The notes beneath the pieces were generated by a model. That model was not told where the DNA came from. It was given only the letters and a program-made list of their open reading frames with translations, and ran no database searches. A DNA stretch of 64,000 nucleotides from a virus: positions 32,001 through 96,000 of the IMG/VR virus record IMGVR_UViG_3300045988_145033; one strand, given 5' to 3'. The translations under genes were made by a program, and so were the position numbers. Shown in pieces: positions 7,734 to 61,690 of this stretch (positions are counted from its first letter, which is position 1; each line of letters opens with the position of its first letter).

Positions 7734-7758
7734 GTGTTTTGAAAAACACCTTTTTGAT
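7734..7758 (+). promoter_or_regulatory. class B motif (gtgttttGAAAAACACCTTTTTGA), palindromic in this copy
   Basis: one of 8 copies of TGAAAAACAGCCTTTTGA-like sequence lying 20-45 nt upstream of start codons. Confidence 0.5.
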
Positions 7759-7784
7759 ATCTAAATAAGGGGGTTTTGGTAAAA

Positions 7785-10001
7785 ATGGAACTTAAAAATA
7801 CATATACATCTCAGATAGCTGAGATATTTAAAAGTAAAGAAACTTTAAAAGAAAACTGGATAAAATCAATAAAAAATAAGATAAGACTTGATGATATTAA
7901 ATCGCAAGAGTTATCAAGTATTTTTGATAAAGCATTCAAAGAAACTCGTATACAATATACAAACTCAGTACAAGGAAAGACAAGAACTCTAGGTGCACTA
8001 GAGTTTATTTATAATACATATAAAGACGAAAAGATACTTGTAGAAAACGGAGTAATATTTCGTAACTCAAGAGAAGTATTTGCTCCTACTGTGGAGTCTG
8101 AGATATATCTTTTCAAAAGAAGAAAGACAGTTAAGAAATTAGGTAACTATTGGCTTACAGAAGGGAATGACCCAATAGTTGGAGCGATATATGATAACTT
8201 GCAAAAGAATATAAAGATACTTATGAATACGTACTATGGGGTACTCACAAATCCATATTCGAGATTTTACAATAGAGATTTAGGAGATAGTATTACTATG
8301 CGTGGACGTTCATCTATATCAGTATCAGCTCTTTCTATGGAAGGAGCATTTGCTAAGAAGATACCACAAGAAACTGAAGCACTTCTTGCTTATTTTGATA
8401 GATGCTCGAAATCTCAGATAGATAAAGATATAATGTGTGATATGAGTTTTCTATATATGAATATTATGAAAGATAAAGATGAAATAGAAGAACTTTTAAA
8501 AGAGTTTCATTTAGAAAATCATTACGACAGAGAGCTTCTTGTAAGAATACTATGTGAATATACTACTCAAGATAGATGTAAGATATACTTTAAAAATAAC
8601 TTTAAAAGAATATCAGAACTTCACATATTTAAAAAGAATGTAATAGATTTCATGAAAGATAGTATAGAACTTAAGACACCGTTTCTTGACCCTAATGAAA
8701 TACCATTTGATAATGCTAAGGGTTATATAGAAGATTTAAGAAGAATAGTGTCTCAAGGACTTACAGGAATGTATTGGTATGGTGGAGATTATATCCAAGA
8801 AAGAGAGATACTTGTTAAGAACTCACAAGATGTAATACAAAGTATAGATAGAAAGGTTATACCGGTAATAGACACGGACTCTAACTTCTTATCTTATGAA
8901 ACTGAATATAATATATTATATGATATACTTAAAAATTCTATATCTTGTATGCCAGCAAAAGATGATGACAATACTTTCTACACTATATCTAATATATGTG
9001 CTATTGTGATGACAGAGGTTATAGATAGTGCTCTTGCGAGATATAAGACTTATGTAAATATACTTCCTGAGAAGAATGGTTGCTTGAAATTAAAGAATGA
9101 ATTTTTATATTTAAAACTTCTTATAACTTCAAGAAAGAAAAACTATATAGGACTTATATCATTAAAAGAGGGTAAACCTTATCCTAAACCTAAACTAGAT
9201 GTAAAAGGATTGGTATTTAAGAAATCGTCAGTAAACTCAAATATCGGTGAAGAGGTTGAATCTATTGTATCTAAACTTCTAAAAGATGATACTCTTAATA
9301 TAAATGATATACTTGCAAGAACTAGAGCAACTACAAATATGATACTAGATGCTCATAAAAACCAAAAGCTTTTAGATTACTGTGTAGCACTAAAGCTTAA
9401 GACTAAACTTGAAGAAACTGATATATCTGATTATAGATGCAAAATGGTAACTTTATGGAATGCTCTTGCTGAAAACGAAAGAGATATAATTATAACACCT
9501 GCAACTTTTTACTCTATTCCTATAAAGATTACAGATAAGTTTAGAAATAAATACCCAGAAATATATGGAAAAATTAAAGCGTGGCTTGACGAACGAAACA
9601 CAATTTTGATTAAAACTCAGATAAATGAGATACTTTCGGACTCTAAGAATAAGAAGTTTCGATTCCTTTCCTTTATGGACCAAAACTTTGACTTGTCTAC
9701 TATAGACTCAGCAGACTCGTGGGTACAAATGCGAAAAGACGCAATGAAACTTAAAAGAGATAAAGGTATAAAGATGCCTTCCGAAGATGTATCTTACTGG
9801 AGTGAAGACGATATATCAAAGATAGCATACCCTATAACGTCAGAAGTAGTTCCAGAATTTATCTTAGATTTAGTGAACGCCGACAATTCATTAGTTCTTG
9901 TCAATTCCCTTTTAGCACCTGTAATTCAAGAGCTTCATGTTTTATGTCCAAGAAATAGTGATGGTAAAAGACTTGTAACTAATATTGTCGAAAGATACTA
10001 G
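7785..10001 (+). CDS. family B DNA polymerase, C-terminal half (palm motifs B and C plus thumb)
   Basis: KILMNTYYG (Kx3NSxYG, motif B), VIDTDS (motif C), KKNY (KKRY-like); the likely start is the ATG at 7785 (the listed ORF begins at a TTG at 7776). Confidence 0.8.
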   Translation: MELKNTYTSQIAEIFKSKETLKENWIKSIKNKIRLDDIKSQELSSIFDKAFKETRIQYTNSVQGKTRTLGALEFIYNTYKDEKILVENGVIFRNSREVFAPTVESEIYLFKRRKTVKKLGNYWLTEGNDPIVGAIYDNLQKNIKILMNTYYGVLTNPYSRFYNRDLGDSITMRGRSSISVSALSMEGAFAKKIPQETEALLAYFDRCSKSQIDKDIMCDMSFLYMNIMKDKDEIEELLKEFHLENHYDRELLVRILCEYTTQDRCKIYFKNNFKRISELHIFKKNVIDFMKDSIELKTPFLDPNEIPFDNAKGYIEDLRRIVSQGLTGMYWYGGDYIQEREILVKNSQDVIQSIDRKVIPVIDTDSNFLSYETEYNILYDILKNSISCMPAKDDDNTFYTISNICAIVMTEVIDSALARYKTYVNILPEKNGCLKLKNEFLYLKLLITSRKKNYIGLISLKEGKPYPKPKLDVKGLVFKKSSVNSNIGEEVESIVSKLLKDDTLNINDILARTRATTNMILDAHKNQKLLDYCVALKLKTKLEETDISDYRCKMVTLWNALAENERDIIITPATFYSIPIKITDKFRNKYPEIYGKIKAWLDERNTILIKTQINEILSDSKNKKFRFLSFMDQNFDLSTIDSADSWVQMRKDAMKLKRDKGIKMPSEDVSYWSEDDISKIAYPITSEVVPEFILDLVNADNSLVLVNSLLAPVIQELHVLCPRNSDGKRLVTNIVERY

Positions 10002-10013
10002 GAGGTGATAATT

Positions 10014-10433
10014 ATGACAGGTATGAAAGACTTTATTGTACATACAGTAAAAGAGATTAAGGATATATTCGGAAGCATACTAGCTAAAGTTCTATTCTTC
10101 TACATATCGTATAAAGCGAAGAAGCTTTTATCTCTTATATCGACTGTATATATAGACGGAGTTAAATATCTCATCGAGTCAAGAGACACGATAAATGGTA
10201 AATTAAAGCTTTTCTCTAAAGATAAAGGATATTTAAACTTAGAACAAGATATCCTTTTAAGTGCTATAAAAGGAGCATTAGAAAAGCAAACTAATCCATT
10301 TGTCCTCAATGACAAAGATGTTCAGCTAACGTCCCTTAATATAATAAAAGAAAAAGTATCAAAACCGTTAGCTGATTTTATAAATATAAAGAATAAAAGA
10401 GTTACTCTTGATTTCAAGAGTATAGATAAATAA
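10014..10433 (+). CDS. hypothetical protein
   Basis: SD GGAGGTGA 5 nt before the ATG at 10014 (the listed ORF begins at a GTG at 10005). Confidence 0.65.
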   Translation: MTGMKDFIVHTVKEIKDIFGSILAKVLFFYISYKAKKLLSLISTVYIDGVKYLIESRDTINGKLKLFSKDKGYLNLEQDILLSAIKGALEKQTNPFVLNDKDVQLTSLNIIKEKVSKPLADFINIKNKRVTLDFKSIDK

Positions 10434-10445
10434 GGAGGCTTTAAA

Positions 10446-11324
10446 ATGAAAGGTGCAATGAAAGAAAACTTTTTTGGGGATATAATGGAATTTATAAATG
10501 GTTCGAAAGAACCATTTATAAATCTTTCAGATTACAATAAAAAGGATAAACTATTCTTTTTTGATATGTCTTTATATCTTTTTATATCAAATAAACTTAA
10601 TTCATCATTTAAAGAAAAGGGACAAGATAAGATTGAGTTTACAAAAAATAGTCCTGAGAAAGATTGGTTTAAATCAAATAATATAAATTCTTGGATAGAG
10701 TTTGTATTCTTTATGAAAGAATGGAGAGAAAAGAATAATAATACTAAGAGTGTAATAGATATGGAAGAAGTATCTCATATAGGTTTATTTAAAGGATACT
10801 ATGATGAGTTCTTCTTGCTTTACAAGAAGTTCCCTAAGATACTATGGGTTACAGCTCTTAGTAATCATAAGATAGAAAATATAGACGGAACTCAATACTA
10901 CTTCATAGATGAACTAGAAGAAATTACAGTTCTTATAGCTATGAATGCTTGGGTGAGACACTTAATGGATAAACACGATAGATACTTTGCTGAGCTTATA
11001 AATACAGAATCTGAGGGACAAGAAAGATTTATAGAATACATAAAAGACTATGTTAAAAATGGATTACCTGAAAATCACGATAGTATTTTAGATTATATAG
11101 GTTACGCTATCTTTATGTCGGGAGTTCAATATTCTAATAAGTTCTTAAGTGAGAATAAGGATTTAATAGGAATGAAACTAGATAAGTATTCAAATAAGGC
11201 TATATCTAAAAGGCTTATAAACGTATTTAAAGAATATATGTGTAATATGCCTAAAGAAGATAACCCTACAAGACCTCGTGAGCTTATAGATAAAATAAAA
11301 GAAATAGAGCATAATGTAAAGTAA
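10446..11324 (+). CDS. hypothetical protein
   Basis: 292-aa ORF; SD AAGGAGG. Confidence 0.7.
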   Translation: MKGAMKENFFGDIMEFINGSKEPFINLSDYNKKDKLFFFDMSLYLFISNKLNSSFKEKGQDKIEFTKNSPEKDWFKSNNINSWIEFVFFMKEWREKNNNTKSVIDMEEVSHIGLFKGYYDEFFLLYKKFPKILWVTALSNHKIENIDGTQYYFIDELEEITVLIAMNAWVRHLMDKHDRYFAELINTESEGQERFIEYIKDYVKNGLPENHDSILDYIGYAIFMSGVQYSNKFLSENKDLIGMKLDKYSNKAISKRLINVFKEYMCNMPKEDNPTRPRELIDKIKEIEHNVK

Positions 11325-11330
11325 AGAGAT

Positions 11331-11352
11331 ATGGTAGGCTTTCGCCTACCAT
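11331..11352 (+). terminator. hairpin atggtaggc-tttc-gcctaccat, copy 1 of 3
   Basis: perfect 9-bp stem directly after the stop codon of 10446-11324; identical copies at 11631-11651 and 33092-33112. Confidence 0.5.
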
Positions 11353-11992
11353 AAAACTGATATTTATTGCGATAAATAAAGGACGCCTGAAATATATCCG
11401 AAAGGATTTCTATAGCAAATTAAAAGCAGTACCAAATCTTTGTTGTTAGATTATGGCTGGGCTCCATGCCCCAACCATAATCCGTCCTTACATGATTAAT
11501 GTTATGAAAGTAATATCTCTGAAAAAATAGAATTTTCATGAATATTTCAAAAAATGCAACGGGACACCCAAAATAATGAATAATATTCAAATTAGTTACA
11601 CCATAGTGTTCTGTAAAAATGCAAAGACTTATGGTAGGCTTTCGCCTACCACTTGTCACCTCTTAATTTGTATAAAGATTAATCATACAATAGCTTACAA
11701 TAGGACGCCTAAAATGTATATTACAATCAATACACTTTTGTGTTACGTATTTAATTAAAAATGTGAGTGTAGTTGATGTATCTATAACGATGAACTTAAC
11801 TATCAATATCATTAGTTTGGTAAAGGACGCCTAAAAGCAGTAACCAAAAATATACTTTGCGTAGCGATACTACGCCTATTAGCCATATCTATTTACTGAA
11901 AGGAGAAAATACAATACACACTCACATTCAAGAAAGTGTTGTGTAATTTGTCAATATTTGGAACAATTTTTTGATAAATGGAGGTGAACTTA
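11353..11992. other. 640-bp non-coding region with three copies of AGGACGCCTRAAA, a second copy of the atggtaggc hairpin and an 11-bp-stem hairpin (ttatggctggg...cccaaccataa)
   Basis: no credible ORF (the two listed 60-79-aa ORFs lack SDs); repeats at about 11380, 11702 and 11824. Confidence 0.5.
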
Positions 11993-12748
11993 ATGGTTAC
12001 TAATGAAGAATATGAACATAAAGCACATTATAATACTATGGATTTTTATACAAAAGCTGATGCGGCTCATATGGGAGACCATGTAGAGCTTGTAAAGCAA
12101 AGAGCTCTTGATATGTATAATTGGTTAAAGGAAAAGAAAGGAATAGAAGCTGACCTCAAATGTGTAATACTTGCGGCTTCATTTCATGATACAGGTTCTG
12201 CTATACAAAGAGAAGACCATAATGTAATATCTTATAACTTATTTAAAGCTGGTAAATTAACTGACGGTATTGAGCTTACAGATGATGAAAAGATTATTAT
12301 AGCAAATGCTATACTTCAGCATTCGTCTCATTTTAAAGGAAACTATTATTCTATAGAAGCTGAGATAGTAGCATCAGCTGATAGAGATGAACCTGACATA
12401 TATGCGATACTTTCTCGTAGTGTAGACTATGCTAGAAAACATAATCCAGATGATATAATAGATAGTGTAGCTGAATATAATATCAAAAGATATGCTAGTT
12501 TTCCGAGCTCTGACTATAGAGTTCCTGATTGGCACTTCGAGTATTGGAATGATATAATGCCGAATTGTTTTACATATATTAATAAATTTTTCCAAAACGA
12601 AGATATAGTTAAAAAGGTTGTGAATTCTATAGCAGACGATAATACTGAAAGATATGTACGAGAGATGATAGATAGCTATATACACAGTGATACTAAACCA
12701 AATTTATTCTCCGAAAGTGTATTCAGGAGATTTAAAGGAGAGATGTAA
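11993..12748 (+). CDS. putative HD-domain phosphohydrolase
   Basis: AASFHDTG plus flanking His residues (AAHMGDH, QHSSH); SD GGAGGTGA before the ATG at 11993. Confidence 0.5.
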   Translation: MVTNEEYEHKAHYNTMDFYTKADAAHMGDHVELVKQRALDMYNWLKEKKGIEADLKCVILAASFHDTGSAIQREDHNVISYNLFKAGKLTDGIELTDDEKIIIANAILQHSSHFKGNYYSIEAEIVASADRDEPDIYAILSRSVDYARKHNPDDIIDSVAEYNIKRYASFPSSDYRVPDWHFEYWNDIMPNCFTYINKFFQNEDIVKKVVNSIADDNTERYVREMIDSYIHSDTKPNLFSESVFRRFKGEM

Positions 12749-12750
12749 TT

Positions 12751-13260
12751 ATGAAAGAAATTTTAAAAACTGAAGACGGAAGAACTATTGAAAACGATAC
12801 AGTTAAATCTGGTAAACCAGTTTATGAAGCTCATAAGTATAACTGCCTTATGAGAGATAAGCATATGGGAAAACTTATAAGAGATACTAAGATACCTAAG
12901 TGTACTATATCTAAGAAGTTCTATAGAGAGCTTGTATATAATAAGACTGGAGATTGTATGTATGAAAGGCTTGTAGACTGGAAGACAGGAAGAACTTTGC
13001 ATTCAGAAGGTTCTATAACACAAGAACCTATAGGATATAGAGTTAGACTTACCTGTCCTAATAATGATACAAAACTTTCATATCAAGTTAATTATTCTAA
13101 ATGGTGGTCATCAGAAGAATATTATATGGATTTATTCAAGATAGATAAAGTTACAGAAAATCTATACTTTGATGACTTCTACGTATACGATTACTATGGT
13201 AAAGTATGTAAGGTTTTATGTGTAAGAAAAGAGTACGGAAAACAATATTCACGTGGGTAA
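12751..13260 (+). CDS. hypothetical protein
   Basis: 169-aa ORF; SD AAAGGAGAG overlaps the upstream stop codon. Confidence 0.7.
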   Translation: MKEILKTEDGRTIENDTVKSGKPVYEAHKYNCLMRDKHMGKLIRDTKIPKCTISKKFYRELVYNKTGDCMYERLVDWKTGRTLHSEGSITQEPIGYRVRLTCPNNDTKLSYQVNYSKWWSSEEYYMDLFKIDKVTENLYFDDFYVYDYYGKVCKVLCVRKEYGKQYSRG

Positions 13261-13270
13261 TACCCACGTG
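13250..13270 (+). terminator. hairpin cacgtgggtaa-tacccacgtg overlapping the stop codon
   Basis: perfect palindrome. Confidence 0.4.
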
Positions 13271-13288
13271 AAAAACAATTTTTTGGAT
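13268..13288 (+). promoter_or_regulatory. class B motif (GTGAAAAACAATTTTTTGGA)
   Basis: motif family member 27 nt upstream of the ATG at 13315. Confidence 0.45.
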
Positions 13289-13314
13289 AATTTAATAATA
13301 AAAGGAGGCAAGTA

Positions 13315-14481
13315 ATGATTAATGATAGCAGAATAATAAGACCTTTTATAACTGATGCTGATGATATGTACTCATTTGATGATTTAGACCAAATGAAATC
13401 AGAGATACAATCTATACTAGGTTTTGATTTAAAAAAGATAATAAGAGTTAATAGATTTTCAAATGCTGATACTAAAGGTAGAATACATTGGAGATACTTA
13501 AGTGATACTCAAGATGATACTTCTGTAGAAGTTAGAGTGAATCTATCAAATGATATAGTACACCCAAATAAAGTTAAAAAATATGCAAATGTTGTAGTAG
13601 GTATACCTTTTATGAATAACGACGGTACAGCACTTCAATATTGGAATGGTTCAGCTTATGAAACTGTGCCTAAGAAACTACAAATAGGAAGACAGTTTGT
13701 AGCATCAGGAGATAACATAGAATGGACTAAAATACCAGTTCTTTTAAAGACAGAAGATGAATTAAAAGCACTCGATAATATAGTATCAGGAGATATATTT
13801 ATAATTCCTAATATGCCAACAGCAACGACAGCTGGTTCTATATCTATGTATTTTGCATCTGTAAAAGAATCAACAGAATTTCCATATAATACAGAGATAG
13901 AAACAGCTACGACTGGTATACACGTTTACAGAATATCATCGTTGGATTTTAGCTACATATCAGACGGTGAAGAAAATAATACTACTGGAAAGCTTACAAT
14001 AGAAGATACAGCAGTTGCAAGCGGTAAAGCTTTAACTTATGTACAAGATAATGTAGTTAATAAGAAAGCTATAATATCTGTAGTATCACAAGCATCGGCT
14101 GATACCGTACATTCATCTGAAGTTACTAAAATGATAGATGATAAGGCAACTCTTGCTTTAAAGAATAGAAGAATAATTTATGATACTGGCAATGGTAAAC
14201 CTAAGAGCTACATATATACAGAAAGAACTTTATACAAAAGACAGCTACAAGCTGGTACTAATACGTTCGTATTTAAAATAGAAGATAGTGCAGAATCGGT
14301 TGCTATACTTGCAGATATATGCTCTTGGACTATAAATAGAGATGTAAGTGCTACATCTAAATATGAATTTACTTTTGATACTACTAAGAAAGAATTAAAG
14401 CTTACTTATGTAAAAGATGCAAGTGATACAAATACTCATATAAAGGTAAATCTATTCCATGGATATAAAGTAGTTGAATAA
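13315..14481 (+). CDS. hypothetical protein (possibly structural)
   Basis: 388-aa ORF; SD AAAGGAGG. Confidence 0.7.
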   Translation: MINDSRIIRPFITDADDMYSFDDLDQMKSEIQSILGFDLKKIIRVNRFSNADTKGRIHWRYLSDTQDDTSVEVRVNLSNDIVHPNKVKKYANVVVGIPFMNNDGTALQYWNGSAYETVPKKLQIGRQFVASGDNIEWTKIPVLLKTEDELKALDNIVSGDIFIIPNMPTATTAGSISMYFASVKESTEFPYNTEIETATTGIHVYRISSLDFSYISDGEENNTTGKLTIEDTAVASGKALTYVQDNVVNKKAIISVVSQASADTVHSSEVTKMIDDKATLALKNRRIIYDTGNGKPKSYIYTERTLYKRQLQAGTNTFVFKIEDSAESVAILADICSWTINRDVSATSKYEFTFDTTKKELKLTYVKDASDTNTHIKVNLFHGYKVVE

Positions 14482-14484
14482 AGA

Positions 14485-14510
14485 TAATGGTGGCACAACG
14501 CCACCATTAT
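14485..14510. terminator. bidirectional terminator hairpin ataatggtggc-acaa-cgccaccattat between convergent genes
   Basis: 12-bp perfect stem. Confidence 0.6.
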
Positions 14511-14512
14511 CT

Positions 14513-16426
14513 TTATAATTGTCCGTTTTTAAAGCTTTCTACATCGTATTGGTCCGGCATAGTTATTTGGTTAGTACCAAGTAGTGCTATAACTGCTCCA
14601 GTTGCCGCATCAAGTATTTTCTTTTCAGCGTCAATAGAGTTAAGTACCTTAAATGTAGTTATGTCTTTTAAAGTGCAAGTTTCACCTTTATATAACTTAT
14701 CAAGTAACACTCTTAAATCAAATGATTCTCTTATAATAAGTTTAGGGTCTTTATCTTCCATTCTATCAAAGTATTCGTTAAGTTGAGACGTTTCGTGGTT
14801 TTCAGATTCATACACTGCTTCGGTTAGATTAAATCCTACACTTTCAAATAGTATTTCTACTAAGTGAATATAAGCCATATTGATTCTATTAGCTATAGCT
14901 CTTTTTATCTTATCCATTGAATTTCCTGTCATTTTATATTTTAGATATACTTCTAAATAAGTTTTAGGAATTATAGTAGACATACCACCACAAACTCCTG
15001 AAGCTACAGCTGATTTTATAGCTCCTACCGCATCATCAACAGCTCCTAGTTTTCTATCTACTTCCCAAGAGTTATCAGCTCCAACTACTATTTCAGCATA
15101 CTTTCCATTTATTCTTCTTATTCTTGCTTTTATAGCATCAGCTCTTCCTTTATCATCTTTTACAAGAGCTAATTCTTCTTCAAGCTCTTTTACGTGTCCC
15201 TCGGCTCTTACTTTATCAAAACCAAATAAAGTAACTTGAGTTTTACTCATAATAGCATCTACTGGATTTATTGCTCCAACTTTTAATAGATTTTCTACAT
15301 ATGAAGAAACTGTGAAATCTAACTCTTCTTCTGTAAATTCTTCTATATTATCAGGGAATATATCTCTAAGTTTCTTATCAAGTTCATATGCTTGTGGTTG
15401 TCCTATCAAATATTCAAAGTCTTTATGTTCTTCTTGCGATAGTATTGTTCCAGTATAAGCATACTCGAGTATATAGATAGGTAAGAAGTCTACATTATAT
15501 TTAGTCTTATACCAATTTCTAACTTGTAGTATTTCTCTTTCAACTACATCTTTATATTGAAGATTATAAGTTATAAATACAACTGGAGACATATTTTCAA
15601 TACCAACACCGTGACCATTCATAAACTCTATCATATTATAAGCAACTTTAGCATATAGTTTCATAAGAGCTCTTATACTATCAGCCGATGCAATATTATT
15701 ATCAACTATAACTGGTATTATCTTCTTTCTTAAAACTGCTTTAGGAAATCCTAAAGGTCCTTGTTGTATAGTATATCCTTCTTTTACAGAATAGTTAGTT
15801 TTAGCTTGAGTTCCGTCTGCTTTATAAGTTACAGAGATATTAGATAAGTCTTCTCCGTCTCTTGTAATCTCTTTTAAAGCTCCTATTAAAGCATCTTTAA
15901 GTTCTGTATCATTATTTACAGAAGTTTCTATAATACCTATTAAATCACTTAAATCAGCTTGAGCAAACACTTTATGGTCGTCCATTTCTTTTTTGAAAGA
16001 TTCCACTACATCTTTAATTAAATCATTAAAGAATTGTGCTGGTAAGTTACTTTTATCTCTAAGCTCAGCTAAAGACTTATATAAATCAGCTATAAGTATT
16101 GTAGTAGTTGTAGTACCGTCTCCAGCTGTTGATAGAACTCCTAGCATAGATGATAATACAAGTTGCTTTAAAGCTTGTGCTACAGGGTGAAAGTATTTAG
16201 TTTTAGATAAAAGAGTATATCCGTCTTTTGTAATAGATGCAAGCACTGCACCATTATCTCCTGATTTTTGTATCATAAGAGTTGAAGCACCTATTGGACC
16301 ATAACTCTTTTTAACTACATCTGCCATATCATCAAGTATATGAGATATGTGCTCACTATTCATCACTGTGTGATTTGTCTCCAAAAGTATTTTCTTCGGT
16401 TGTTCCACTTTCTCTGTCATGTTCAT
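14513..16426 (-). CDS. GroEL-like (Hsp60) chaperonin
   Basis: [16 protein letters not shown] matches the GroEL ATP-binding motif GDGTTTATVLA; N-terminal [32 protein letters not shown] matches GroEL [36 protein letters not shown] near the C-terminus. Confidence 0.8.
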   Translation of the reverse strand: [637 protein letters not shown]

Positions 16427-17102
16427 TTTTAAATTCCTCCTTATTTTTATCTTCTTCTTTAGGTTTATCTAGCACCCAAGTTTCTACAGCAACAACAGCT
16501 TTATCCTTTATCCAAGGAAAGTTAATAGGTGCAAGCATTACAAAGTCATCATGCAAGGCATCTAAAAGTAGTTCATTTGCTGTAAATATAGAAGAACGTT
16601 CTTCTTTGGTACTATATTGTAGTTTCTCTCTTTTTAATCTATTTCCCATTTCTTCATCAGTTATAAGATTAGGTAAAACTCCTAATAAGTTTAGTTTCTT
16701 TAATACTAAAAGCTCTACTGTATTTGTAGGTTGATAAACGCATAAAACTTCGGGTACTCCTATTATAGCCATTATTCCCGAAACTCTTACAGGAATATCT
16801 TCTATATTTGTAAATTTAGAAAGTAACCAGTTTAAAAACTCATCATCTACATTAAGATACGCCCACATAAATCTTGTCATAAAAGCATTAAATAATGAGT
16901 ATCTATCAAGATTACGTTCGTCTTTTAATGTTATCTCAAGTAAAGCCTTACAAACTAAGAAGTTTTCTTTATCTTCTTCAGTTACCATTTTATCAGGGTT
17001 CTCACACCAATCGACATATAGCTTCCCCATAAGCTCAGCTATAACAAGCTGAGTTGAGTAGCATACGTCGTCGAGAATTAAATATTTAGTATTAGATGCC
17101 AT
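16356..17102 (-). CDS. hypothetical protein; its 3' end overlaps the chaperonin gene by about 70 nt
   Basis: 248-aa ORF; SD GGAGGGTATAGTAT. Confidence 0.65.
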   Translation of the reverse strand: MASNTKYLILDDVCYSTQLVIAELMGKLYVDWCENPDKMVTEEDKENFLVCKALLEITLKDERNLDRYSLFNAFMTRFMWAYLNVDDEFLNWLLSKFTNIEDIPVRVSGIMAIIGVPEVLCVYQPTNTVELLVLKKLNLLGVLPNLITDEEMGNRLKREKLQYSTKEERSSIFTANELLLDALHDDFVMLAPINFPWIKDKAVVAVETWVLDKPKEEDKNKEEFKNEHDRESGTTEENTFGDKSHSDE

Positions 17103-17105
17103 ATA

Positions 17106-17339
17106 CTATACCCTCCACATACTCATCATATACATTAAAGCAACAATAGAAAAACCTATTACAAATGCTATTCCTCTTGCTTTTCTTTTATTACCTTTTT
17201 TGATATGCTTTTTGTATCTTTTTATATTAAGTAGTACAGCATATTGTAGCATCACCATAAATATACCTGTCTTCATAATAGACGTGAATATAGTAGCGAT
17301 AACGTATTTTAAATAAGCATCACTCATTATCTTCATCAT
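17106..17339 (-). CDS. small membrane protein (two hydrophobic segments)
   Basis: 77-aa ORF. Confidence 0.55.
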   Translation of the reverse strand: MMKIMSDAYLKYVIATIFTSIMKTGIFMVMLQYAVLLNIKRYKKHIKKGNKRKARGIAFVIGFSIVALMYMMSMWRV

Positions 17340-18822: not shown

Positions 18823-18832
18823 TTATTTCACC

Positions 18833-18852
18833 TCAAAAGGCTGTTTTTCACA
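18833..18852 (-). promoter_or_regulatory. class B motif (sense TGTGAAAAACAGCCTTTTGAGGTG)
   Basis: motif directly abuts the SD of the helicase gene. Confidence 0.5.
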
Positions 18853-18879
18853 ATTTTAAAACAAAAAAAAAAGAGGAAC

Positions 18880-19068
18880 TTAATCCCCTTTGTGTTTGTT
18901 GAAGTAGTACCATGCGTCTGCCCACATAGTAAGCAGAGCACCACTCCATCTTAGACTAGCTAAGACTTTGATTCCGGCGATTGCTGTCGCCAAAGTTATA
19001 ATACCGAAATATATCACAGTCATTATAGTGGCTGCGATAAGCATAGCAATGATTTGTAGATTTTTCAT
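18880..19068 (-). CDS. small membrane protein (62 aa, two TM segments)
   Basis: hydrophobic; preceded by the conserved class A leader. Confidence 0.6.
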   Translation of the reverse strand: MKNLQIIAMLIAATIMTVIYFGIITLATAIAGIKVLASLRWSGALLTMWADAWYYFNKHKGD

Positions 19069-19077
19069 ATTGTACCT

Positions 19078-19170
19078 CCTTAAGGTATTAAATTAAGACT
19101 GTAAGCTCTTAACCCTTGTTAAGTTTACTCTTGTCTTCTACTATTATTATATATAATTGAAATGAAAAAT
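19078..19170 (-). promoter_or_regulatory. class A promoter plus conserved leader, copy 2 of 3
   Basis: see 6125-6215. Confidence 0.55.
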
Positions 19171-19202
19171 TAAGGAACGTAGATAAAAAAAATAGAATAT
19201 CT

Positions 19203-19463
19203 TTACGGGCAGAAGATATCTATTATATCGTCCAAGCAGTCAAGAATAACCGCAGCTATCTTTCCGATGAACGATTTCTTTTGAAGTTTCTTTATCACCC
19301 TGTCCTTTCTTGCGTCCATTTTGTCTATATAATTGAAGATAAACCTAGCCAATGGACTCCATCTAAGTCTCTTCTTTAAAACCTTGTACGCGTAACTCTT
19401 AACAATGTCGCCCGCAGCATATGTCAGAGCTTTACGTACGAATAAACCGAATAGATACCACAT
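19203..19463 (-). CDS. hypothetical protein
   Basis: 86-aa ORF with class A motif at 19491-19516. Confidence 0.6.
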   Translation of the reverse strand: MWYLFGLFVRKALTYAAGDIVKSYAYKVLKKRLRWSPLARFIFNYIDKMDARKDRVIKKLQKKSFIGKIAAVILDCLDDIIDIFCP

Positions 19464-19539
19464 GATATCACCTCCTTTTAACTCGGCTATTCCTATTATT
19501 ATTATATATAATTGAAAGAAAAAATTGCGAATTTTATAT

Positions 19540-19555
19540 ACTCCCCGAAGGGAGT
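19540..19555. terminator. hairpin actcccc-gaa-gggagt
   Basis: short GC-rich palindrome. Confidence 0.35.
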
Positions 19556-19562
19556 ATAATAT

Positions 19563-33035: not shown

Positions 33036-33091
33036 TAAATTACCTCCTTTAAAAGCTTATTTCATCAAAAAAATGTTTCTGACGAGTTTAA

Positions 33092-35538: not shown

Positions 35539-35584
35539 ATTATTTCCTCCTTTTGAGTTACTTTAAAACTAAAGTGGTGTTTGT

Positions 35585-35606
35585 GATACTCCCGCTAGGG
35601 AGTATC
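35585..35606. terminator. hairpin gatactccc-gcta-gggagtatc
   Basis: 9-bp stem. Confidence 0.45.
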
Positions 35607-38022: not shown

Positions 38023-38042
38023 TCAAATCGCTGTTTTTCACA
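38023..38042 (-). promoter_or_regulatory. class B motif (sense TGTGAAAAACAGCGATTTGAGGTG)
   Basis: same motif as upstream of the other polymerase half. Confidence 0.5.
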
Positions 38043-38093
38043 TCTAAAATATTAAAAACACCAAATTATTATAAAAATAAGGAGGTTTTATAA

Positions 38094-40095: not shown

Positions 40096-40190
40096 TTACC
40101 TCCCAAGGTATTAAATTTAGACGTCGGAACTCTTAAGCCCTCTTAAGTTTATTCCTTATCTCTACTTTTATTATATATAATTGAAATGAA
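40096..40190 (-). promoter_or_regulatory. class A promoter plus conserved leader, copy 3 of 3
   Basis: see 6125-6215. Confidence 0.55.
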
Positions 40191-42154: not shown

Positions 42155-42202
42155 TTTTAAGCCTCCTATTTAAAATTAATCTAAAGTCGTGTTCCTAATT
42201 CT

Positions 42203-46679: not shown

Positions 46680-46712
46680 TGTAAAACCTCCTTTTAATTA
46701 TAATTTTTAAAC

Positions 46713-46733
46713 TAAAGGGCTGTTTTTCACACT
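46713..46733 (-). promoter_or_regulatory. class B motif (sense GTGTGAAAAACAGCCCTTTAG)
   Basis: motif family member. Confidence 0.45.
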
Positions 46734-46741: not shown

Positions 46742-46772
46742 AAAAAAAAAAATGGTGAGGATAAACCCCACC
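46742..46772 (-). terminator. rho-independent terminator, third copy of the ggtgagg/ccccacc element
   Basis: identical to 3781-3812. Confidence 0.6.
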
Positions 46773-46779
46773 ACTTATA

Positions 46780-49027: not shown

Positions 49028-49107
49028 TTTTGAACCTCCTTTAAATTTTAAATTTTAGCATCTAGTTATTCCTATTGCTAGGTTTATAATATATAAGAAA
49101 TAATGTG

Positions 49108-52671: not shown

Positions 52672-52727
52672 TTGATTTTTCAAATAGCTGTTCGTCATAA
52701 AACCCCCAGAAACAGCTTAAATAGAAG
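52672..52727. promoter_or_regulatory. divergent region with two class B-like motifs (minus sense GAACAGCTATTTGAAAAATC; plus sense AGAAACAGCTTAAATAGAAG)
   Basis: AACAGC cores 25-40 nt from each divergent start codon. Confidence 0.4.
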
Positions 52728-52757: not shown

Positions 52758-53681
52758 ATGGAACTTACTATTATAAGTTTGATAGTTATGGTAAATTTAA
52801 TGCTATTTGGTGGAGCTACATTATTTGTAATGTATATGCTTAAATCAAAGGAAATGGAAGATAAAAGAATAGAAAATGAAAGGCAATTTATGCTTGAGCA
52901 AACGAGACTTTCAATAGAGCAAACCGAGAATAAACGAAAGGAAGAAGAAAGGGTAAGACGGTATTTACTCGATAAGGAAAAGCAACTTGCAGATATTAAA
53001 CTTCGTGAAAAGGAAATAGATTATAACGCCTCTCTTGATGTCAAGAAAGAAGTTTATAATCCTTTAGAAGAAATGATAGAAACTGTTGTAGAACCTTATT
53101 TGAAATTCAAATATACTAATATAGAAAAAGACCCTAAAGACTTTGTAATGGAAGATATAATAATTCCTAGATTTGGACCGCATAGAGAAAATGATATAAA
53201 AGATATTTATAAAACTATAGTTTCTGATATGTCTCCTACTATGAGAAATATACTAGGTAAATATTTAAAAGATGAAAATTTAGATATAATGATAGATAAG
53301 ATGATAAGACTATACTACAATAGAACTCTTGATACATTAACTAAATATAAAAATGAGCTAGCACTTCGTGAACAAGCTGTAATGTCAAGAAAAGACCCAC
53401 TATTTATAAATGGTAAGCTTAATAGAAAGGCAAGAGGACTTTCAAAAGAAGCGGCTGATGCAATAGAATATTATAAGATACATAATGTAAAAGACTTAGT
53501 AGAAGCACAAAAACTTATGCGTGATGAAGAACACGCTGACTTATATATAAATGCACGTTATGAAAATGAAATACGTAATGGATTTGACCACGGAGTTAAT
53601 ATACTAAAAGTTGACCCTTCACAATATGATGACTTTTTAAGGTGGAAATTCCCAGACAATTACGGTTTATATAATAGATAA
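52758..53681 (+). CDS. hypothetical protein with an N-terminal TM segment and coiled coil
   Basis: 307-aa ORF; SD TTTAGGAGGTATAAACAT. Confidence 0.7.
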   Translation: MELTIISLIVMVNLMLFGGATLFVMYMLKSKEMEDKRIENERQFMLEQTRLSIEQTENKRKEEERVRRYLLDKEKQLADIKLREKEIDYNASLDVKKEVYNPLEEMIETVVEPYLKFKYTNIEKDPKDFVMEDIIIPRFGPHRENDIKDIYKTIVSDMSPTMRNILGKYLKDENLDIMIDKMIRLYYNRTLDTLTKYKNELALREQAVMSRKDPLFINGKLNRKARGLSKEAADAIEYYKIHNVKDLVEAQKLMRDEEHADLYINARYENEIRNGFDHGVNILKVDPSQYDDFLRWKFPDNYGLYNR

Positions 53682-53692: not shown

Positions 53693-56485
53693 ATGGAAAT
53701 ATTTAATATAGATAAATTCATAAGAGCAAGACAAGTAAAAGAAGTTACGACAACTAACCTCTTTCTCGCATCAGGTTCACCAGACCCTGAAGGACTTGTA
53801 TCTCAAGTTATATTTGGTACGTCTACAATAGATAGACAATCAAGATATGGGTATATACAACTTCATGGAAAGTTTATGCACCCTATAATATACAAAAGAA
53901 TATTTAAAAGAAGTTATAGAAAGATAGACGGTATTATAGCTGGAACTGATTACTATAATATTACTGAAAAGGGAGAACTTGTAAAAGACCCCGAAGGATA
54001 TACTGGACTTGAATGGCTTTATAAGAATTTTGAGAGAATAAAGTTTCAGAATATAAATTTAGAAGAAGATGGTGATGATATAGAACTATCTTTATTTAAA
54101 GAGGACGTAAGAGCAGTTATGAAGAAATATACAAAGGACCAGTTATTTATTGATAAGATTATAGTTATACCTATAGCTTATCGTGATATAGATATAAGAG
54201 ACGGTCAAATGGGTATTGATGAGCTTAACTCTTTATATCGTTCTATTATGAATAAAGCTAGAATGCTACAAGATAATAAGAATGTAAAACTGTTTGATTT
54301 GAATAGGCTTATGTTTCAGATGCAACTACAGATAGCTCAACTATCTGACCACTACAAAGCTATAATAAGTGGTAAGTATGGACTTCAAAGAAAAAGAGCA
54401 CTATCTAAAAACGTTGACTATGGTTCAATAGTTGTATTATCAGGACACGAGTTTGACGGAGATAAGTTTTATGATGAAAAGGTAAATGTTGATAAAACAG
54501 GTTTCCCTTTAACTGCTATAGTTACTAATATGCAATTATTTATAATACGTAGAGTAGAAGATTTCTTAAGACAACTTCCTATGACAAAGAAAAATGGTGA
54601 GCAGTTCTCTTTAAGAGAAAAGGAAATGTATTATGACGGTGAGAAGATAAAGGAATACATACAAACTTATGCTCACTCTATATCAGAAAGATTTAACTTT
54701 GTTGAAACTCCAGACGGTGGTAATGTTACTTTCACATATAAAGTAGCTGGAAAAGAAAAGACAAGATTTATGACAATAACTGACGTTTTGTATATGTTTG
54801 CTTATAGTGAAGCTGAGCTTGCAGAACGTCATATGCTTATAACACGTCACCCTACTATGGATAGCTTTAACGTTATACCTACGCTTATTCACGTTCTATC
54901 TACTATTAAGACAATAGAAGTCGAAGCGTATGGTATGAAATATCCTTACTATCCCGATATAGATTATATCTTTGATAAGTATGGAGATTTAAGAGTAAGA
55001 GAAAATGCAATAAAGGCAGAAAGAGAATTATCAGGTTACTTTACAGAATCTGAAAAGATATCCACTTTACAACTTGAGGGAATGGACGGAGACTTAGACG
55101 GAGATAAAAATATAGCAAGACCGGTATTTTCAGATGAAGCCAACGAAGAATGCAGGCAAAAAAGAGAGGCACTTGCGTCACACTTTAATATGAGAATGGA
55201 GAATATGAAGATACTTGGAACTGATAGTGTACAAGCTTTATATTCATTTACAGTATTTAGAAAAGACGCACCTTATGCTAAACCTGCTACAATAGAAAAG
55301 TTAAAGAATGCTAAATCAGATGATATTACTGTAACTTATTTATTTAAAGAACTAAGACTTGCAGATACTACTAAATTTAAAAGAGAAAATGATATAAGAG
55401 ATTTAATACCTATTAAAAATGGTGAGTTTGGTTATAAAGGAAAAGATACAGTTTGTACAATAGGACAATTCATAGCTTGGAAGCTTTTATTTGAAGATTG
55501 TAAAATACCAATTCTTACAGAAGTTCTAACTAAGAAAGTCATAGAAAGAACTTTTACAGAAATAGGAGTTAAGATACAACATAAAGAAATTACAATAGAC
55601 GATTTCAAGAAATGTGTAAATAGATATGAAGCGTTCTCACTTCGTATGACTTCATTTGTAAATCCTTCTGTATCAACTGAAATGCTTATTCTTACACCAG
55701 AGATAAGAGAATTAAAATCGAAACTTATAGAAGAAAATAAAGCTGGTATTGAAGCTAATGACCCATATGCCGCTGCTAAGGTTGAAAAGCCACTAATTGA
55801 TAAAGTAGAAGAAGTGTATGGAGATAAACCTGAAATGGAAACTTATCGTTCAGGGGTTGTAACTCTTGATAATAACTATAAGGTACTTGCACTTATGGCA
55901 GGAGCACTACCACAAGATGAAGACTTCAATAAGTTTAAAGTAGTTACAGATTCTTTATCAGACGGACTACAAAAGAAAGACTTATCTTACTTTGGTAATA
56001 TGGGACTTGTGGGTGGATACTCAAGAGGTAAAGCACCAGAAGTCGGTGGAGCTATGGCAAAACTTGCAGGGTATGTGTATCAAACTATGAGACTTGATAA
56101 GTTTGGTACTGATTGTGGAACGAAAGTATATTGTGAAATATATGTAGACCCTAAAGCAGAAGTTGAATATTATGGAAGATATGTTCCTGAAGGGAATGAG
56201 CTTGTAATGATAACTAAAGAAAACTTCTCAAAATATGCTGGAAAGAAAGTTCCTATGCGTTCAGTTCTAACTTGTAAGACACCTCTTGTATGCAATAAAT
56301 GTGCAGGAGATGGAATATACAATATCTTAGGAATATATGATAGACCTGTAGATTTCGGACTTAAGCTTAATAAACAACAGCACGAGCTTGTACAAAAGAG
56401 ACTTAAACTTTCTCACGATACTTCAGTTAAATTCAAGCACTTAGATTTTGACTGTATAGTACCTAGTAAGAAGAAAGGAAAATAG
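53693..56485 (+). CDS. multisubunit RNA polymerase beta-prime-like subunit, N-terminal part including the catalytic region
   Basis: YGYIQLHGKFMHPII resembles MGHIELAAPVAHIWF; LSKNVDYGSIVVLSG resembles LLGKRVDYSGRSVIV; ITRHPTMDSFNVIPTLIHV resembles LNRAPTLHRLGIQAF; MDGDLDGD is a candidate DxDGD metal-binding loop. Confidence 0.7.
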   Translation: MEIFNIDKFIRARQVKEVTTTNLFLASGSPDPEGLVSQVIFGTSTIDRQSRYGYIQLHGKFMHPIIYKRIFKRSYRKIDGIIAGTDYYNITEKGELVKDPEGYTGLEWLYKNFERIKFQNINLEEDGDDIELSLFKEDVRAVMKKYTKDQLFIDKIIVIPIAYRDIDIRDGQMGIDELNSLYRSIMNKARMLQDNKNVKLFDLNRLMFQMQLQIAQLSDHYKAIISGKYGLQRKRALSKNVDYGSIVVLSGHEFDGDKFYDEKVNVDKTGFPLTAIVTNMQLFIIRRVEDFLRQLPMTKKNGEQFSLREKEMYYDGEKIKEYIQTYAHSISERFNFVETPDGGNVTFTYKVAGKEKTRFMTITDVLYMFAYSEAELAERHMLITRHPTMDSFNVIPTLIHVLSTIKTIEVEAYGMKYPYYPDIDYIFDKYGDLRVRENAIKAERELSGYFTESEKISTLQLEGMDGDLDGDKNIARPVFSDEANEECRQKREALASHFNMRMENMKILGTDSVQALYSFTVFRKDAPYAKPATIEKLKNAKSDDITVTYLFKELRLADTTKFKRENDIRDLIPIKNGEFGYKGKDTVCTIGQFIAWKLLFEDCKIPILTEVLTKKVIERTFTEIGVKIQHKEITIDDFKKCVNRYEAFSLRMTSFVNPSVSTEMLILTPEIRELKSKLIEENKAGIEANDPYAAAKVEKPLIDKVEEVYGDKPEMETYRSGVVTLDNNYKVLALMAGALPQDEDFNKFKVVTDSLSDGLQKKDLSYFGNMGLVGGYSRGKAPEVGGAMAKLAGYVYQTMRLDKFGTDCGTKVYCEIYVDPKAEVEYYGRYVPEGNELVMITKENFSKYAGKKVPMRSVLTCKTPLVCNKCAGDGIYNILGIYDRPVDFGLKLNKQQHELVQKRLKLSHDTSVKFKHLDFDCIVPSKKKGK

Positions 56486-58762: not shown

Positions 58763-58852
58763 TTTGATTCCTCCTTAAAATTTTTTATTTTTACCTCTCG
58801 GTCTACATATATAATATATAGTATAAAAAATGAAAGTTGCACTAAGGCTACT

Positions 58853-60502: not shown

Positions 60503-60516
60503 ATCGTTTACTCCTT

Positions 60517-61662
60517 TCAGTTATCGCTAATAGTTGGTTTTTCAAATTCAGGAATATCTAGTAGCTCTTTTATCCTCGATATGTCGATATTCACATCATA
60601 TATTTCCTCTATAGTTTTTTGTATCTTGTCAGTTAAAGGTATAGTAGGAGACAGTACATACTCTGCATCTTCTTCTATTGATTTAACTTCTGATACCTTT
60701 ACTTCTCTTTCTATCTTAAATTTAAAAGTTCCTTTATAAGATGACATAATAAGTGATAGATTTTTATACTCCTCATCGGAGTATCTATTAGTATCTACAT
60801 CTATTCTTATTTCATCTTTATCAGTTTTGTCAAGCTTTAAATCATTAAAGAAAGCTTTCATTTTCTTTATTGATTGTCTGCATATCTCAGTACCATCAAT
60901 TATTGTATATCTCCTACATTTCTTATTTTCTATAAATTTACAATCATAAGTTCCATTTTCTAAATCTATTGTAATATCATCAAAACCTTTCTTTACTCCT
61001 GCGTCTGTAAATGATTTAGAAGAATATGAACCTGTATACCAAATATTATCAGCAACTACTATTCTATTATGTATATGACCACACACTGTATATAATCCTG
61101 TAGTTTCTATTATATCTTTATCTTTAAGTATTTGAGCTGACTTGTGAGTTTCAGCTTTATAAGCTTTAGCATAAGGCATAGCAGATTCTATCGAACCGTG
61201 GTATACAGTTACATCAGCCATAGTAGTTAAAGCCTTTTCTTTTAGCTCTTCGTAATCATTTGAGTAATACTCAGGGATGAATCTAAATAAAAGTCCTTCG
61301 TATTCATAGAAAGTTACGTCCTTTATTATAAATAAATTTGTATTATCTTCAAGTGGAGCAAATATATCAAGTTGTGTACTATCGTGAGATTGTGTACCTT
61401 TAACTATGAATATTTTAAAATCGTATATCTTAGCACGATTATAAAGTATCTTTATAAATTCTACTGCTATTTGTATAGCTTTATGGTTAGCCGGATAAAC
61501 TCTATCAAATAAATCTCCAGCTATAGTTAGTATATCTAAATTATCTTTTATTTTATCTATATAATAAATGATATCCATAAGTTCCTCTACATAATCAGTC
61601 GGTTCTTTATAGATTGATATATGAATATCTGAAATATTAATATGTCTTACAAAATGCTTCAT
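60517..61662 (-). CDS. SbcD/Mre11-like metallophosphoesterase nuclease
   Basis: motifs ISDIHIS, GDLFD, GTQSHD, VYHGS and CGHIHNR; likely start is the ATG at 61662 after GGAGGTGTTT (the listed ORF begins at a GTG at 61707). Confidence 0.65.
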   Translation of the reverse strand: MKHFVRHINISDIHISIYKEPTDYVEELMDIIYYIDKIKDNLDILTIAGDLFDRVYPANHKAIQIAVEFIKILYNRAKIYDFKIFIVKGTQSHDSTQLDIFAPLEDNTNLFIIKDVTFYEYEGLLFRFIPEYYSNDYEELKEKALTTMADVTVYHGSIESAMPYAKAYKAETHKSAQILKDKDIIETTGLYTVCGHIHNRIVVADNIWYTGSYSSKSFTDAGVKKGFDDITIDLENGTYDCKFIENKKCRRYTIIDGTEICRQSIKKMKAFFNDLKLDKTDKDEIRIDVDTNRYSDEEYKNLSLIMSSYKGTFKFKIEREVKVSEVKSIEEDAEYVLSPTIPLTDKIQKTIEEIYDVNIDISRIKELLDIPEFEKPTISDN

Positions 61663-61667
61663 AAACA

Positions 61668-61690
61668 CCTCCGAAACAGCCTTTTGATTA
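61668..61690 (+). promoter_or_regulatory. class B motif (CCGAAACAGCCTTTTGATTAAA)
   Basis: motif family member upstream of 61753. Confidence 0.45.

Follow-up and report, generated by a model that had tools for sequence, protein, structure and literature searches.

We have analysed a stretch of viral DNA of 64,000 nucleotides (positions 32,001 to 96,000 of IMG/VR record IMGVR_UViG_3300045988_145033, hereafter the window), in which a short motif recurs just ahead of many genes. Its functional core is AACA followed by six bases of any kind, a T and a purine, i.e., AACA-N6-T(A/G), and we believe, with a probability of about 85%, that it serves as promoter for a non-virion multisubunit RNA polymerase (nvRNAP) encoded by the phage itself, an enzyme of the type known from the Bacillus jumbo phage AR9. 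The phage is a ~180-kb Fusobacterium nucleatum phage, a distant relative of AR9, and encodes both virion and non-virion multisubunit RNA polymerases (RNAPs). The case is built on the motif with its spacing, placement and orientation, on its conservation and its purge from genes, and on the homology of the polymerases and the reciprocal wiring of early and late genes, all of which are read directly from the genomes.

The phage and its relatives

Positions 7700-20000 of the window are 91% identical to Fusobacterium phage JD-Fnp1 and its relatives JD-Fnp4, 6 and 7 (megablast; phages of 174-180 kb), and the window as a whole spans approximately the JD-Fnp1 genome from 143.2 kb, through the origin, to ~24 kb. 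Full-length contigs of ~178 kb from this phage family are common in metagenomes, where there are also more distant relatives in which the beta'-C polymerase protein is only 65% identical (hereafter the 65% clade). About 20 proteins in all have AR9 counterparts at 22-37% identity, including both halves of the family B DNA polymerase (PolB), the SF2 helicase and the primase. The genomes used for comparison were the whole of JD-Fnp1, 130-180 kb of AR9 (as positive control), the temperate phage JD-Fnp2 from the same host, and the 65% clade. The paper describing the JD-Fnp phages does not mention RNA polymerases, promoters or base modification, and our literature search found no paper connecting Fusobacterium phages with AR9 and no published transcription work on phages of the JD-Fnp type.

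Definition and placement of the motif

The late promoter consensus of AR9 is A(-11)ACA-(6N)-T-A/G(+1), the last base being the start site (PMC7598289; PMC5312081), and it was defined by differential RNA sequencing (dRNA-seq) and by in vitro transcription with the purified nvRNAP (PMC7598289; PMC5312081; PMC9209446). The original prediction had named an AACA element at -11 to -8 for this enzyme, and the pattern enriched in our phage has indeed the published AR9 late consensus with its exact spacing. A genome-wide search relative to start codons, proposed then as a check, finds AACA-N6-T(A/G) concentrated between genes and facing their starts, both in the window and in JD-Fnp1. There are 25 matches to AACA-N6-T[GA] in the window, 18 of which (72%) are intergenic, with intergenic sequence amounting to 8.6-9.4% of the window (binomial P = 8e-14). 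Of the 18 intergenic sites, fourteen face a start codon on the same strand 23-78 nt downstream, and the other four lie within a single stretch free of open reading frames (ORFs). For JD-Fnp1 the intergenic matches are 51 of 69 by the first gene calls, or 49 of 69 in a scan of spacer lengths (71-74%), and the median distance from the first A of AACA to the start codon is 42 nt. In the same scan, the proportion of intergenic matches was 18/25 (window) and 49/69 (JD-Fnp1) for N6, and only 6-27% (window) and 5-17% (JD-Fnp1) for N2-5 and N8-10. Spacing N7 is a weak minor variant, found at the 52705 site and at about six gene-proximal sites of JD-Fnp1. A position matrix of 36 JD-Fnp1 sites adds weaker preferences for T-16, A-14, R-12, C-6, T-3 and R+2 (R, purine), and terminator-like hairpins are found just upstream of several AACA sites.

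The motif had been described at first as eight copies of the 18-mer TGAAAAACAGCCTTTTGA, with an invariant core AACAGC, each lying 20-45 nt before a start codon and abutting a Shine-Dalgarno (SD) sequence. All eight sites exist, 0-8 nt from where they had been placed, but three are poor copies of the 18-mer. This sequence has five matches in the window at up to three mismatches (7740+, 18833-, 38023-, 46712-, 61670+), against 0.11 expected by chance and with none of 100 shuffles reaching five, and the copies at 13269+, 52680- and 52706+ differ from it at 4, 4 and at least 7 positions and count as copies only by the shorter definition. Seven of the eight fit AACA-N6-T[GA]; the eighth (52705+) is AACA-N7-TA. 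The functional core is shorter than the 18-mer, which spans positions -16 to +2 as its best-consensus version, and only AACA is invariant (AACACC at 7745, AACAAT at 13274). The distances from the first A of AACA to the start codon are 40, 41, 23, 23, 45, 33, 47 and 78 nt, within the proposed range for six of the eight, and true abutment to an SD sequence is limited to the two 23-nt sites. The eight copies were a real signal too narrowly drawn, a best-consensus subset of a class that comprises seven more gene-proximal sites (AACA at 7738-, 11962+, 33077-, 35581-, 38057+, 42193- and 61720-) and the four sites in the ORF-free stretch. A downstream start codon had also been preferred for two genes whose long ORFs run through the motif; this re-assignment agrees with our SD-based calls (49984-52659, 891 aa; 60517-61662, 381 aa) and with the JD-Fnp1 annotation. 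A division of the sites into subclasses AACAGC, AACACC and AACATT, or by an upstream TGAAA, was tried and gave no clean correspondence with gene function.

Conservation of the sites and their purge from genes

The 108 core positions of the 18 intergenic sites are all identical in the window and JD-Fnp1 (0 substitutions), with flanks ~7% different. In the 65% clade the sites are found at orthologous positions within diverged surroundings, and the back-to-back pair between PolB and its neighbour stands as a conserved block.

Inside genes the situation is the opposite. AACA/TGTT is the most under-represented non-palindromic tetranucleotide in both the window and JD-Fnp1. The expectation was set by a synonymous-codon shuffle that keeps the protein sequence and the codon usage of each gene, and against it the coding sequences (CDS) of the window have 161 copies of AACA in the sense strand (355 expected) and 137 in the antisense strand (241 expected). 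For AACA-N6-TR the figures are 4 vs. 40 expected (sense) and 3 vs. 20 (antisense), and in JD-Fnp1 the antisense count of the full motif is 3 vs. 67.5. That is, AACA is about halved and the full motif is depleted 7-25-fold on both strands. Spacing N7 is depleted in the window CDS much like N6, whereas the deficit at N5 and N8 is no greater than that of AACA alone. Among the in-gene copies of AACA in JD-Fnp1, those with T[GA] at N6 make up 3.3% (12.6% expected) and those with T[GA] at N7 5.7% (16% expected), with no further drop at N5 or N8. The purge is alike in JD-Fnp1 and in the 65% clade. It is absent from AR9 (observed/expected 0.95-0.99), and the temperate JD-Fnp2 has no sense-strand deficit of AACA (0.99) and no intergenic enrichment at N6, with only a marginal dip of the full motif. 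A compositional bias of the host is ruled out as the cause by this same-host control and codon usage by the synonymous-codon shuffle; therefore the deficit reflects neither host composition nor codon bias. A longer recognition site is ruled out as well, the AACA deficit being uniform across flanking bases and codon phases. The purge is most simply explained if stray initiation, or binding of the polymerase, is selected against whichever the strand, and as such it represents a rare, clear case of genome-wide selection against a phage-polymerase promoter element.

Against the same shuffle, the SD-like GAGG has an observed/expected ratio of 0.59 in the CDS of JD-Fnp1 and its complement CCTC one of 0.46, which suggests avoidance of internal ribosome-binding sites.

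Two polymerases and two classes of predicted promoter

The AR9 reference set for the nvRNAP was gp270, gp154, gp105 and gp089. The window gene at 1516-3444 (-) matches AR9 nvRNAP chain 7S00_D (E 6e-23) and AR9 gp154, and it is the beta'-C gene. JD_72 matches AR9 gp089 (beta-C, 2e-31) and JD_99 the AR9 beta'-N chain 7S00_d (1.6e-5). For beta-N, a phmmer search with AR9 gp105 finds nothing in JD-Fnp1. Judging by short stretches of likeness, the subunit missing from these matches is probably JD_69 (L002:20204-21508, minus strand, 434 aa), which belongs to an early operon outside the window: its PRLINNVIRLNGNHYF resembles gp105 PKLIDSQYFIINGNRYY, and its C-terminal GTSTSDNVGLAGLL resembles gp105 GLTSTSAGDPGASGSL. 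The alignment score of JD_69 with gp105 is no better than that of shuffles (z 0.9), and a PDB sequence search of JD_69 gave no relevant match. On the side of the virion RNAP (vRNAP), the 930-aa protein at 53693-56485 has no Pfam or PDB sequence match and is identified as beta'-N by tblastn against AR9 DNA (homologue of AR9 gp145, 3e-42), and JD_95 is homologous to AR9 gp189, the virion beta subunit.

A second intergenic motif, TATATATTATA with (T)AG ~6-7 nt later, is often found just after a T-run terminator. In JD-Fnp1 it stands directly upstream of every recognised nvRNAP gene (JD_72, JD_99, JD_154/153), in the window it precedes the operon 3434-3697 / 1516-3444, and the 24 JD-Fnp1 copies that precede a gene are all on one strand. 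AACA sites, for their part, lie upstream of the helicase gene and both PolB halves, of structural genes (the portal gene, tail genes and the one of 3029 aa) and of the two vRNAP operons. No gene of the window has sites of both classes, 15 having a late and 10 an early site. Taken together, the regulatory logic of AR9 is supported here, in which the injected polymerase would make a second polymerase and this one would make the rest.

Both vRNAP operons (beta'-N and beta), as well as a gene for a virion-protein homologue, have upstream of them the N7-spaced variant (window 52706-52724 +; JD-Fnp1 13859, 93932, 104534, 55727), whose few sites may represent a subclass that is weaker or acts later. 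The PolB of these phages is split into two genes 25 kb apart, 7785-10001, homologous to AR9 gp152 (catalytic), and 35595-38012, homologous to gp132 (exonuclease and partial catalytic). PolB is split in both phages, and therefore the split predates the divergence of the Bacillus and Fusobacterium phages.

The programme that we favour would run as follows. The vRNAP would enter with the DNA and transcribe the early genes from TATATATTATA promoters, including the split beta and beta' genes of the nvRNAP. The nvRNAP, once assembled with a putative specificity subunit, would then initiate at AACA-N6-TR, with AACA at -11 to -8, six (sometimes seven) bases, T at -1 and the purine at +1 as the start of the RNA. 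Its targets would be replication genes (PolB halves, helicase, HD hydrolase), structural genes (portal, 3029-aa, tail), the vRNAP genes and a few small non-coding units, with resulting leaders of 12-67 nt (median ~31) that carry a strong SD. So short a signal being enough, selection would clear AACA from the coding sequences on both strands, and AACA-N6/7-TR more than anything else. We infer the start site, the pairing of enzyme and promoter and the DNA strand that is read.

Weighing the proposal and its alternatives

Several points tell against an AR9-type nvRNAP promoter. The start 8 nt after the last A of AACA (11 nt from the first A) and the short leaders follow from the AR9 rule, and the start sites are predicted only. 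The gene starts come from an ORF and SD caller made for this analysis, with the JD-Fnp1 annotation as the only cross-check. Seven AACA-N6-TR matches persist within window genes. The PolB genes are under early promoters in AR9 but behind AACA sites here, and because of this the late class of our phage may be middle plus late. AR9 initiates late transcription with the specificity subunit gp226, of which no homologue was found in JD-Fnp1 or the window by phmmer or by hidden Markov models (HMMs) of 18 and 143 sequences, and the low-confidence AlphaFold2 models of JD_146 (pLDDT 55.5) and JD_71 (pLDDT 55.9) gave no PDB fold match in Foldseek. Finally, the AR9 nvRNAP strictly needs deoxyuridine at template positions -11 and -10 (PMC7598289; PMC9209446), and the recognition chemistry cannot be identical to that of AR9 because the DNA of our phage is probably thymine DNA.

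An intragenic AACA-N6-TG at 9597 (+), in the PolB gene, has good flanks (GAAACACAATTTTGA), is kept in JD-Fnp1 (151949) and lies 417 nt before the next gene. It could be an internal promoter of the type reported in AR9.

One could also see in the motif a host promoter of the sigma-70 type, in which TTGAAA or GTGAAA just before AACA would be the -35 box and the -10 box would be an A/T-rich hexamer ~17 nt further on, and by eye this is possible at 7740 (TTGAAA-17-TAAATA) and 13269 (GTGAAA-17-TTTAAT). However, at 18833 and 38023, with their 12-nt leaders, the -10 box would abut the ATG and transcription would start inside the gene, past the SD, and the bases that are actually conserved (AACA, T-1, R+1) differ from these hexamers. 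In 33-53 kb, sigma-70-like sites are about as many as expected (117 vs. 108 +/- 11.5), and the best of them lie within genes. Besides, the phage has two RNAPs of its own, and the temperate phage of the same host that relies on the host RNAP has neither enrichment nor purge. We find a host promoter hardly tenable. The strand specificity and the fixed distance to the SD and start codon would equally be expected of a signal at the RNA level, such as an operator in the 5' untranslated region for a translational repressor, or an RNase processing site, with transcripts starting further upstream. But the terminator hairpins directly before several sites leave no upstream transcript, and the many divergent back-to-back pairs in short gaps leave no room for another promoter. 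Nor would an mRNA signal predict an antisense depletion as strong as that of the sense strand (3 vs. 67.5 in JD-Fnp1), and the exact identity with the proven promoter consensus of a related phage would be left unexplained, so that a signal of this kind seems to us very unlikely.

The motif might, on the other hand, be the site of a phage transcription or initiation factor acting with the virion or host RNAP, or AACA might be avoided on account of a nuclease or defence system unrelated to transcription. In keeping with these ideas, no gp226-like subunit was identified, and AACA alone, without the downstream TR, is two-fold depleted. A tetranucleotide-specific nuclease, however, does not predict the second layer of depletion, which is specific to the spacing (N6 and N7; not N5 or N8). 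As to a factor, it is the purified AR9 nvRNAP that recognises a signal with this core, this spacing and this start dinucleotide, among solved structures the subunits have their closest homologues in AR9 nvRNAP chains, and the promoters of the vRNAP are already accounted for by the TATATATTATA motif. To a factor or a nuclease we would concede a small chance, the largest among these alternatives.

Specificity subunit and nature of the DNA

The larger HMM was built from 143 diverse gp226 members taken from a profile search of 1.8 billion proteins, in which the gp226 family amounted to 510 cluster representatives. The best lead is JD_146 (177 aa), which matches the C-terminal domain of gp226 with an i-E (independent E-value) of 6e-4 in a set of 219 proteins; hhalign of the JD_146 family against the gp226 family gives a probability of only 6%. 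JD_71, JD_148 and the 441-aa protein of the window were also compared with PDB sequences, with nothing relevant returned. The missing sequence match does not prove absence, because gp226 and phiKZ gp68 are alike in structure only (PMC9209446).

The DNA of the Fusobacterium phage is probably thymine and not uracil DNA (U-DNA), on indirect evidence, as sequence records cannot tell U from T. Concerning the genes of a uracil-DNA toolkit, searches of JD-Fnp1 and the window found no homologue of Ugi, dCMP deaminase or 5'(3')-deoxyribonucleotidase. Neither ThyA/ThyX, thymidylate synthase, dUTPase nor deaminase was found in the phage family, and ten window proteins had no match in NCBIfam. JD-Fnp1 was sequenced from a standard TruSeq library, and U-DNA Staphylococcus phages needed PCR-free libraries. 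The restriction sites GATC, GCGC and GGCC occur 0, 0 and 0 times in the 64-kb window, where CATG has 40 copies vs. ~350 expected, and 3, 4 and 0 times in the 180 kb of JD-Fnp1, compared with 22 GATC in the 41 kb of JD-Fnp2. U-DNA has been reported to be resistant to restriction enzymes with A/T in their site, and the avoidance of these sites suggests that the DNA is exposed, unprotected by base substitution at such sites. Thymine DNA is favoured because of the TruSeq library, the metagenome contigs, the lack of uracil-DNA genes and the avoidance of GATC, none of them decisive.

Of domains resembling those of nucleotide metabolism, the family yielded only a radical-SAM/4Fe-4S protein (a window ORF), the HD-domain hydrolase (11993-12748) and a MazG-like pyrophosphatase (JD_29).

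A tentative proposal, to which we give slightly less than even odds, is that this family runs AACA-N6-TR on thymine DNA through a specificity subunit without detectable sequence relation to gp226. The four-base element would then be nearly sufficient without uracil as a mark of self, hence the purge of AACA, and especially of AACA-N6/7-TR, that is not seen in AR9. If true, this would be a natural thymine-accepting version of the strictly deoxyuridine-dependent recognition of AR9.

The sites and their genes

The predicted promoters of the window and the associated genes are given below; copies 1 to 8 are the originally predicted ones.

7740..7757 (+), predicted AACA-N6-TG promoter (-16..+2) of the PolB catalytic half 7785-10001; AACA at 7745, 40 nt to the ATG; copy 1; block conserved across clades
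7726..7743 (-), predicted AACA-N6-TA promoter of gene 7322-7696 (124 aa); back-to-back with the 7740 site, AACA boxes 3 nt apart; newly listed
11957..11974 (+), predicted AACA-N6-TG promoter of the HD-domain gene 11993-12748, 31 nt to the ATG; orthologous sites in contigs L017 and L020; newly listed
11928..11945 (-), AACA-N6-TG site, ORF-free stretch (11325-11990) unit 1 of 4; candidate small-RNA unit
11732..11749 (-), AACA-N6-TG site, ORF-free stretch unit 2; predicted ~105-nt transcript with hairpin GGTAGGCGAAAGCCTACC as its 3' end
11598..11615 (-), AACA-N6-TG site, ORF-free stretch unit 3
11432..11449 (-), AACA-N6-TG site, ORF-free stretch unit 4
13269..13286 (+), predicted AACA-N6-TG promoter of gene 13315-14481 (388 aa); hairpin CACGTGGGTAATACCCACGTG directly upstream; copy 2
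18833..18850 (-), perfect 18-mer, predicted promoter of the SF2 helicase 17320-18822; predicted 12-nt leader GAGGUGAAAUAA; T-run terminator upstream; copy 3
33065..33082 (-), predicted AACA-N6-TG promoter of the 3029-aa gene 23946-33035; newly listed
35569..35586 (-), predicted AACA-N6-TA promoter of the portal gene 33121-35538; hairpin immediately before; newly listed
38023..38040 (-), predicted AACA-N6-TG promoter of the PolB exonuclease half 35595-38012; 12-nt leader; copy 4
38052..38069 (+), predicted AACA-N6-TA promoter of gene 38094-39137; divergent from the 38023 site; newly listed
42181..42198 (-), predicted AACA-N6-TA promoter of gene 41495-42154; newly listed
46712..46729 (-), predicted AACA-N6-TA promoter of the 643-aa tail/baseplate-like gene 44748-46679; just after terminator 46750-46776; copy 5
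52680..52697 (-), predicted AACA-N6-TG promoter of the 891-aa gene 49984-52659; copy 6
52706..52724 (+), predicted AACA-N7-TA variant promoter of gene 52758-53681 and the vRNAP beta'-N gene 53693-56485; copy 7
61670..61687 (+), predicted AACA-N6-TG promoter of gene 61753-62700; the 78-nt distance contains a hairpin; copy 8
61708..61725 (-), predicted AACA-N6-TG promoter of the Mre11-like gene 60517-61662; divergent from the 61670 site; newly listed
1516..3444 (-), nvRNAP beta'-C gene, coding for a subunit of the proposed promoter-reading enzyme; an early-type promoter heads its operon
3744..3754 (-), early-type promoter core TATATATTATA, predicted to drive 3434-3697 and the nvRNAP beta'-C gene; AR9 early consensus
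3744-3754, 4550-4560, 5267-5277, 6188-6198, 6430-6440, 7274-7284, 40167-40177, 49085-49095 and 58810-58820 (all -), early motif TATATATTATA, preceding small genes and the beta'-C operon
53693..56485 (+), vRNAP beta'-N gene, homologue of AR9 gp145; AACA-N7 promoter at 52706

The divergent promoters 61675(+) / 61720(-) have one palindrome in common, GGTGCTACGCACC (~61696-61712), and both predicted leaders carry the same hairpin. This palindrome could be a shared regulatory element of the Mre11-like gene and its neighbour.

The ORF-free stretch 11325-11990 (-) deserves a separate description. It contains four AACA-N6-TG units, with AACA at 11940, 11744, 11610 and 11444, and after each one comes a copy of TTTWRGGYGTCC; four of the five window matches of TTTWRGGYGTCC are here, vs. 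0.89 expected. Three units end in a GC-rich hairpin without a T-run, GGTAGGCGAAAGCCTACC being present twice. The predicted RNAs are ~105-185 nt long, and their 3' hairpins fold well (z about -3). No tRNA and no match to an Rfam family was found in this stretch or in its JD-Fnp1 counterpart (87.3-89.0 kb). The arrangement is conserved in the 65% clade (L017 3042-3827 (+), L020 3381-3929 (+)). We consider these units candidate phage small RNAs, or possibly an origin region.

Implications

With these results the two-polymerase programme of the AR9 type and its late-promoter code are extended beyond phages that infect Firmicutes and have uracil DNA. They now reach a widespread family of F. nucleatum phages with genomes of ~180 kb, and phage tools are in demand for this bacterium, which lives in the mouth and is associated with tumours. 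The results also provide a near-complete map of about 40 gene-proximal sites in JD-Fnp1, which the removal of stray copies from the genome makes legible by direct inspection. In addition, the family offers a natural comparison for the uracil dependence of the enzyme, namely how the -11/-10 pockets of the AR9 type handle thymine.

Comparison with known promoters

The AR9 late promoters (PBS1 group, nvRNAP and gp226; PMC5312081, PMC7598289, PMC9209446) are identical to ours in core, spacer length and start dinucleotide. When the same script was applied to 130-180 kb of AR9 it recovered an intergenic enrichment specific to N6 (58/213 matches, with 12% of the sequence intergenic) and a median distance to the start codon of ~41 nt, vs. 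42 nt here. Occasional spacing variants are found in both phages. The split beta/beta' nvRNAP is homologous, AR9 chains being the best PDB matches of the Fusobacterium-phage subunits, and both have the early/late division with the nvRNAP genes behind early promoters, a split PolB, the SF2 helicase and a GroEL-like gene. There are also differences. The Fusobacterium phage has a Gram-negative anaerobe as host, a genome of 180 kb vs. 251 kb in AR9, and proteins that are 22-37% identical. The preferences T-16, A-14, R-12, C-6, T-3 and R+2 are found only here, with G/C at -7/-6 where AR9 has A/T, and genes strongly purged of AACA and of the full motif are another feature that AR9 lacks. No homologue of gp226, Ugi, dCMP deaminase or deoxyribonucleotidase is detectable here, and the DNA is probably thymine, by indirect evidence, in contrast to the uracil of AR9.

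The companion motif, TATATATTATA then (T)AG ~6-7 nt later, has the same core as the early promoters of the AR9 type, which are used by the virion RNAP and read AAATATATATTAT-(6N)-G (PMC5312081); the early promoter of the Staphylococcus jumbo phage MarsHill is TATATTAT (bioRxiv 10.1101/2020.12.14.422802). By this match, the AR9 programme is shown to be conserved in both its halves. The late promoters of phiKZ, T(-3)ATG(+1), used by its nvRNAP with gp68, are likewise a minimal signal for a split multisubunit RNAP with a fifth, sigma-like subunit, but they have another sequence, without a -10-like AACA, and the subunit matches are much weaker (7OGP_C, E 0.0018, vs. 8e-28 for AR9 7S00_C). There is also some likeness to the -10 element of sigma-70 promoters (TATAAT), which is short, lies near -10 and nucleates melting, AR9 gp226 being structurally sigma-like. 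However, the sequence is different, there is no -35 partner, and AR9 reads the template strand and not the non-template one. In terms of class, the motif of the Fusobacterium phage is very probably an AR9-type nvRNAP promoter, a known kind, and its extended consensus, the purge from the genome and the probable thymine background add to the AR9 picture.

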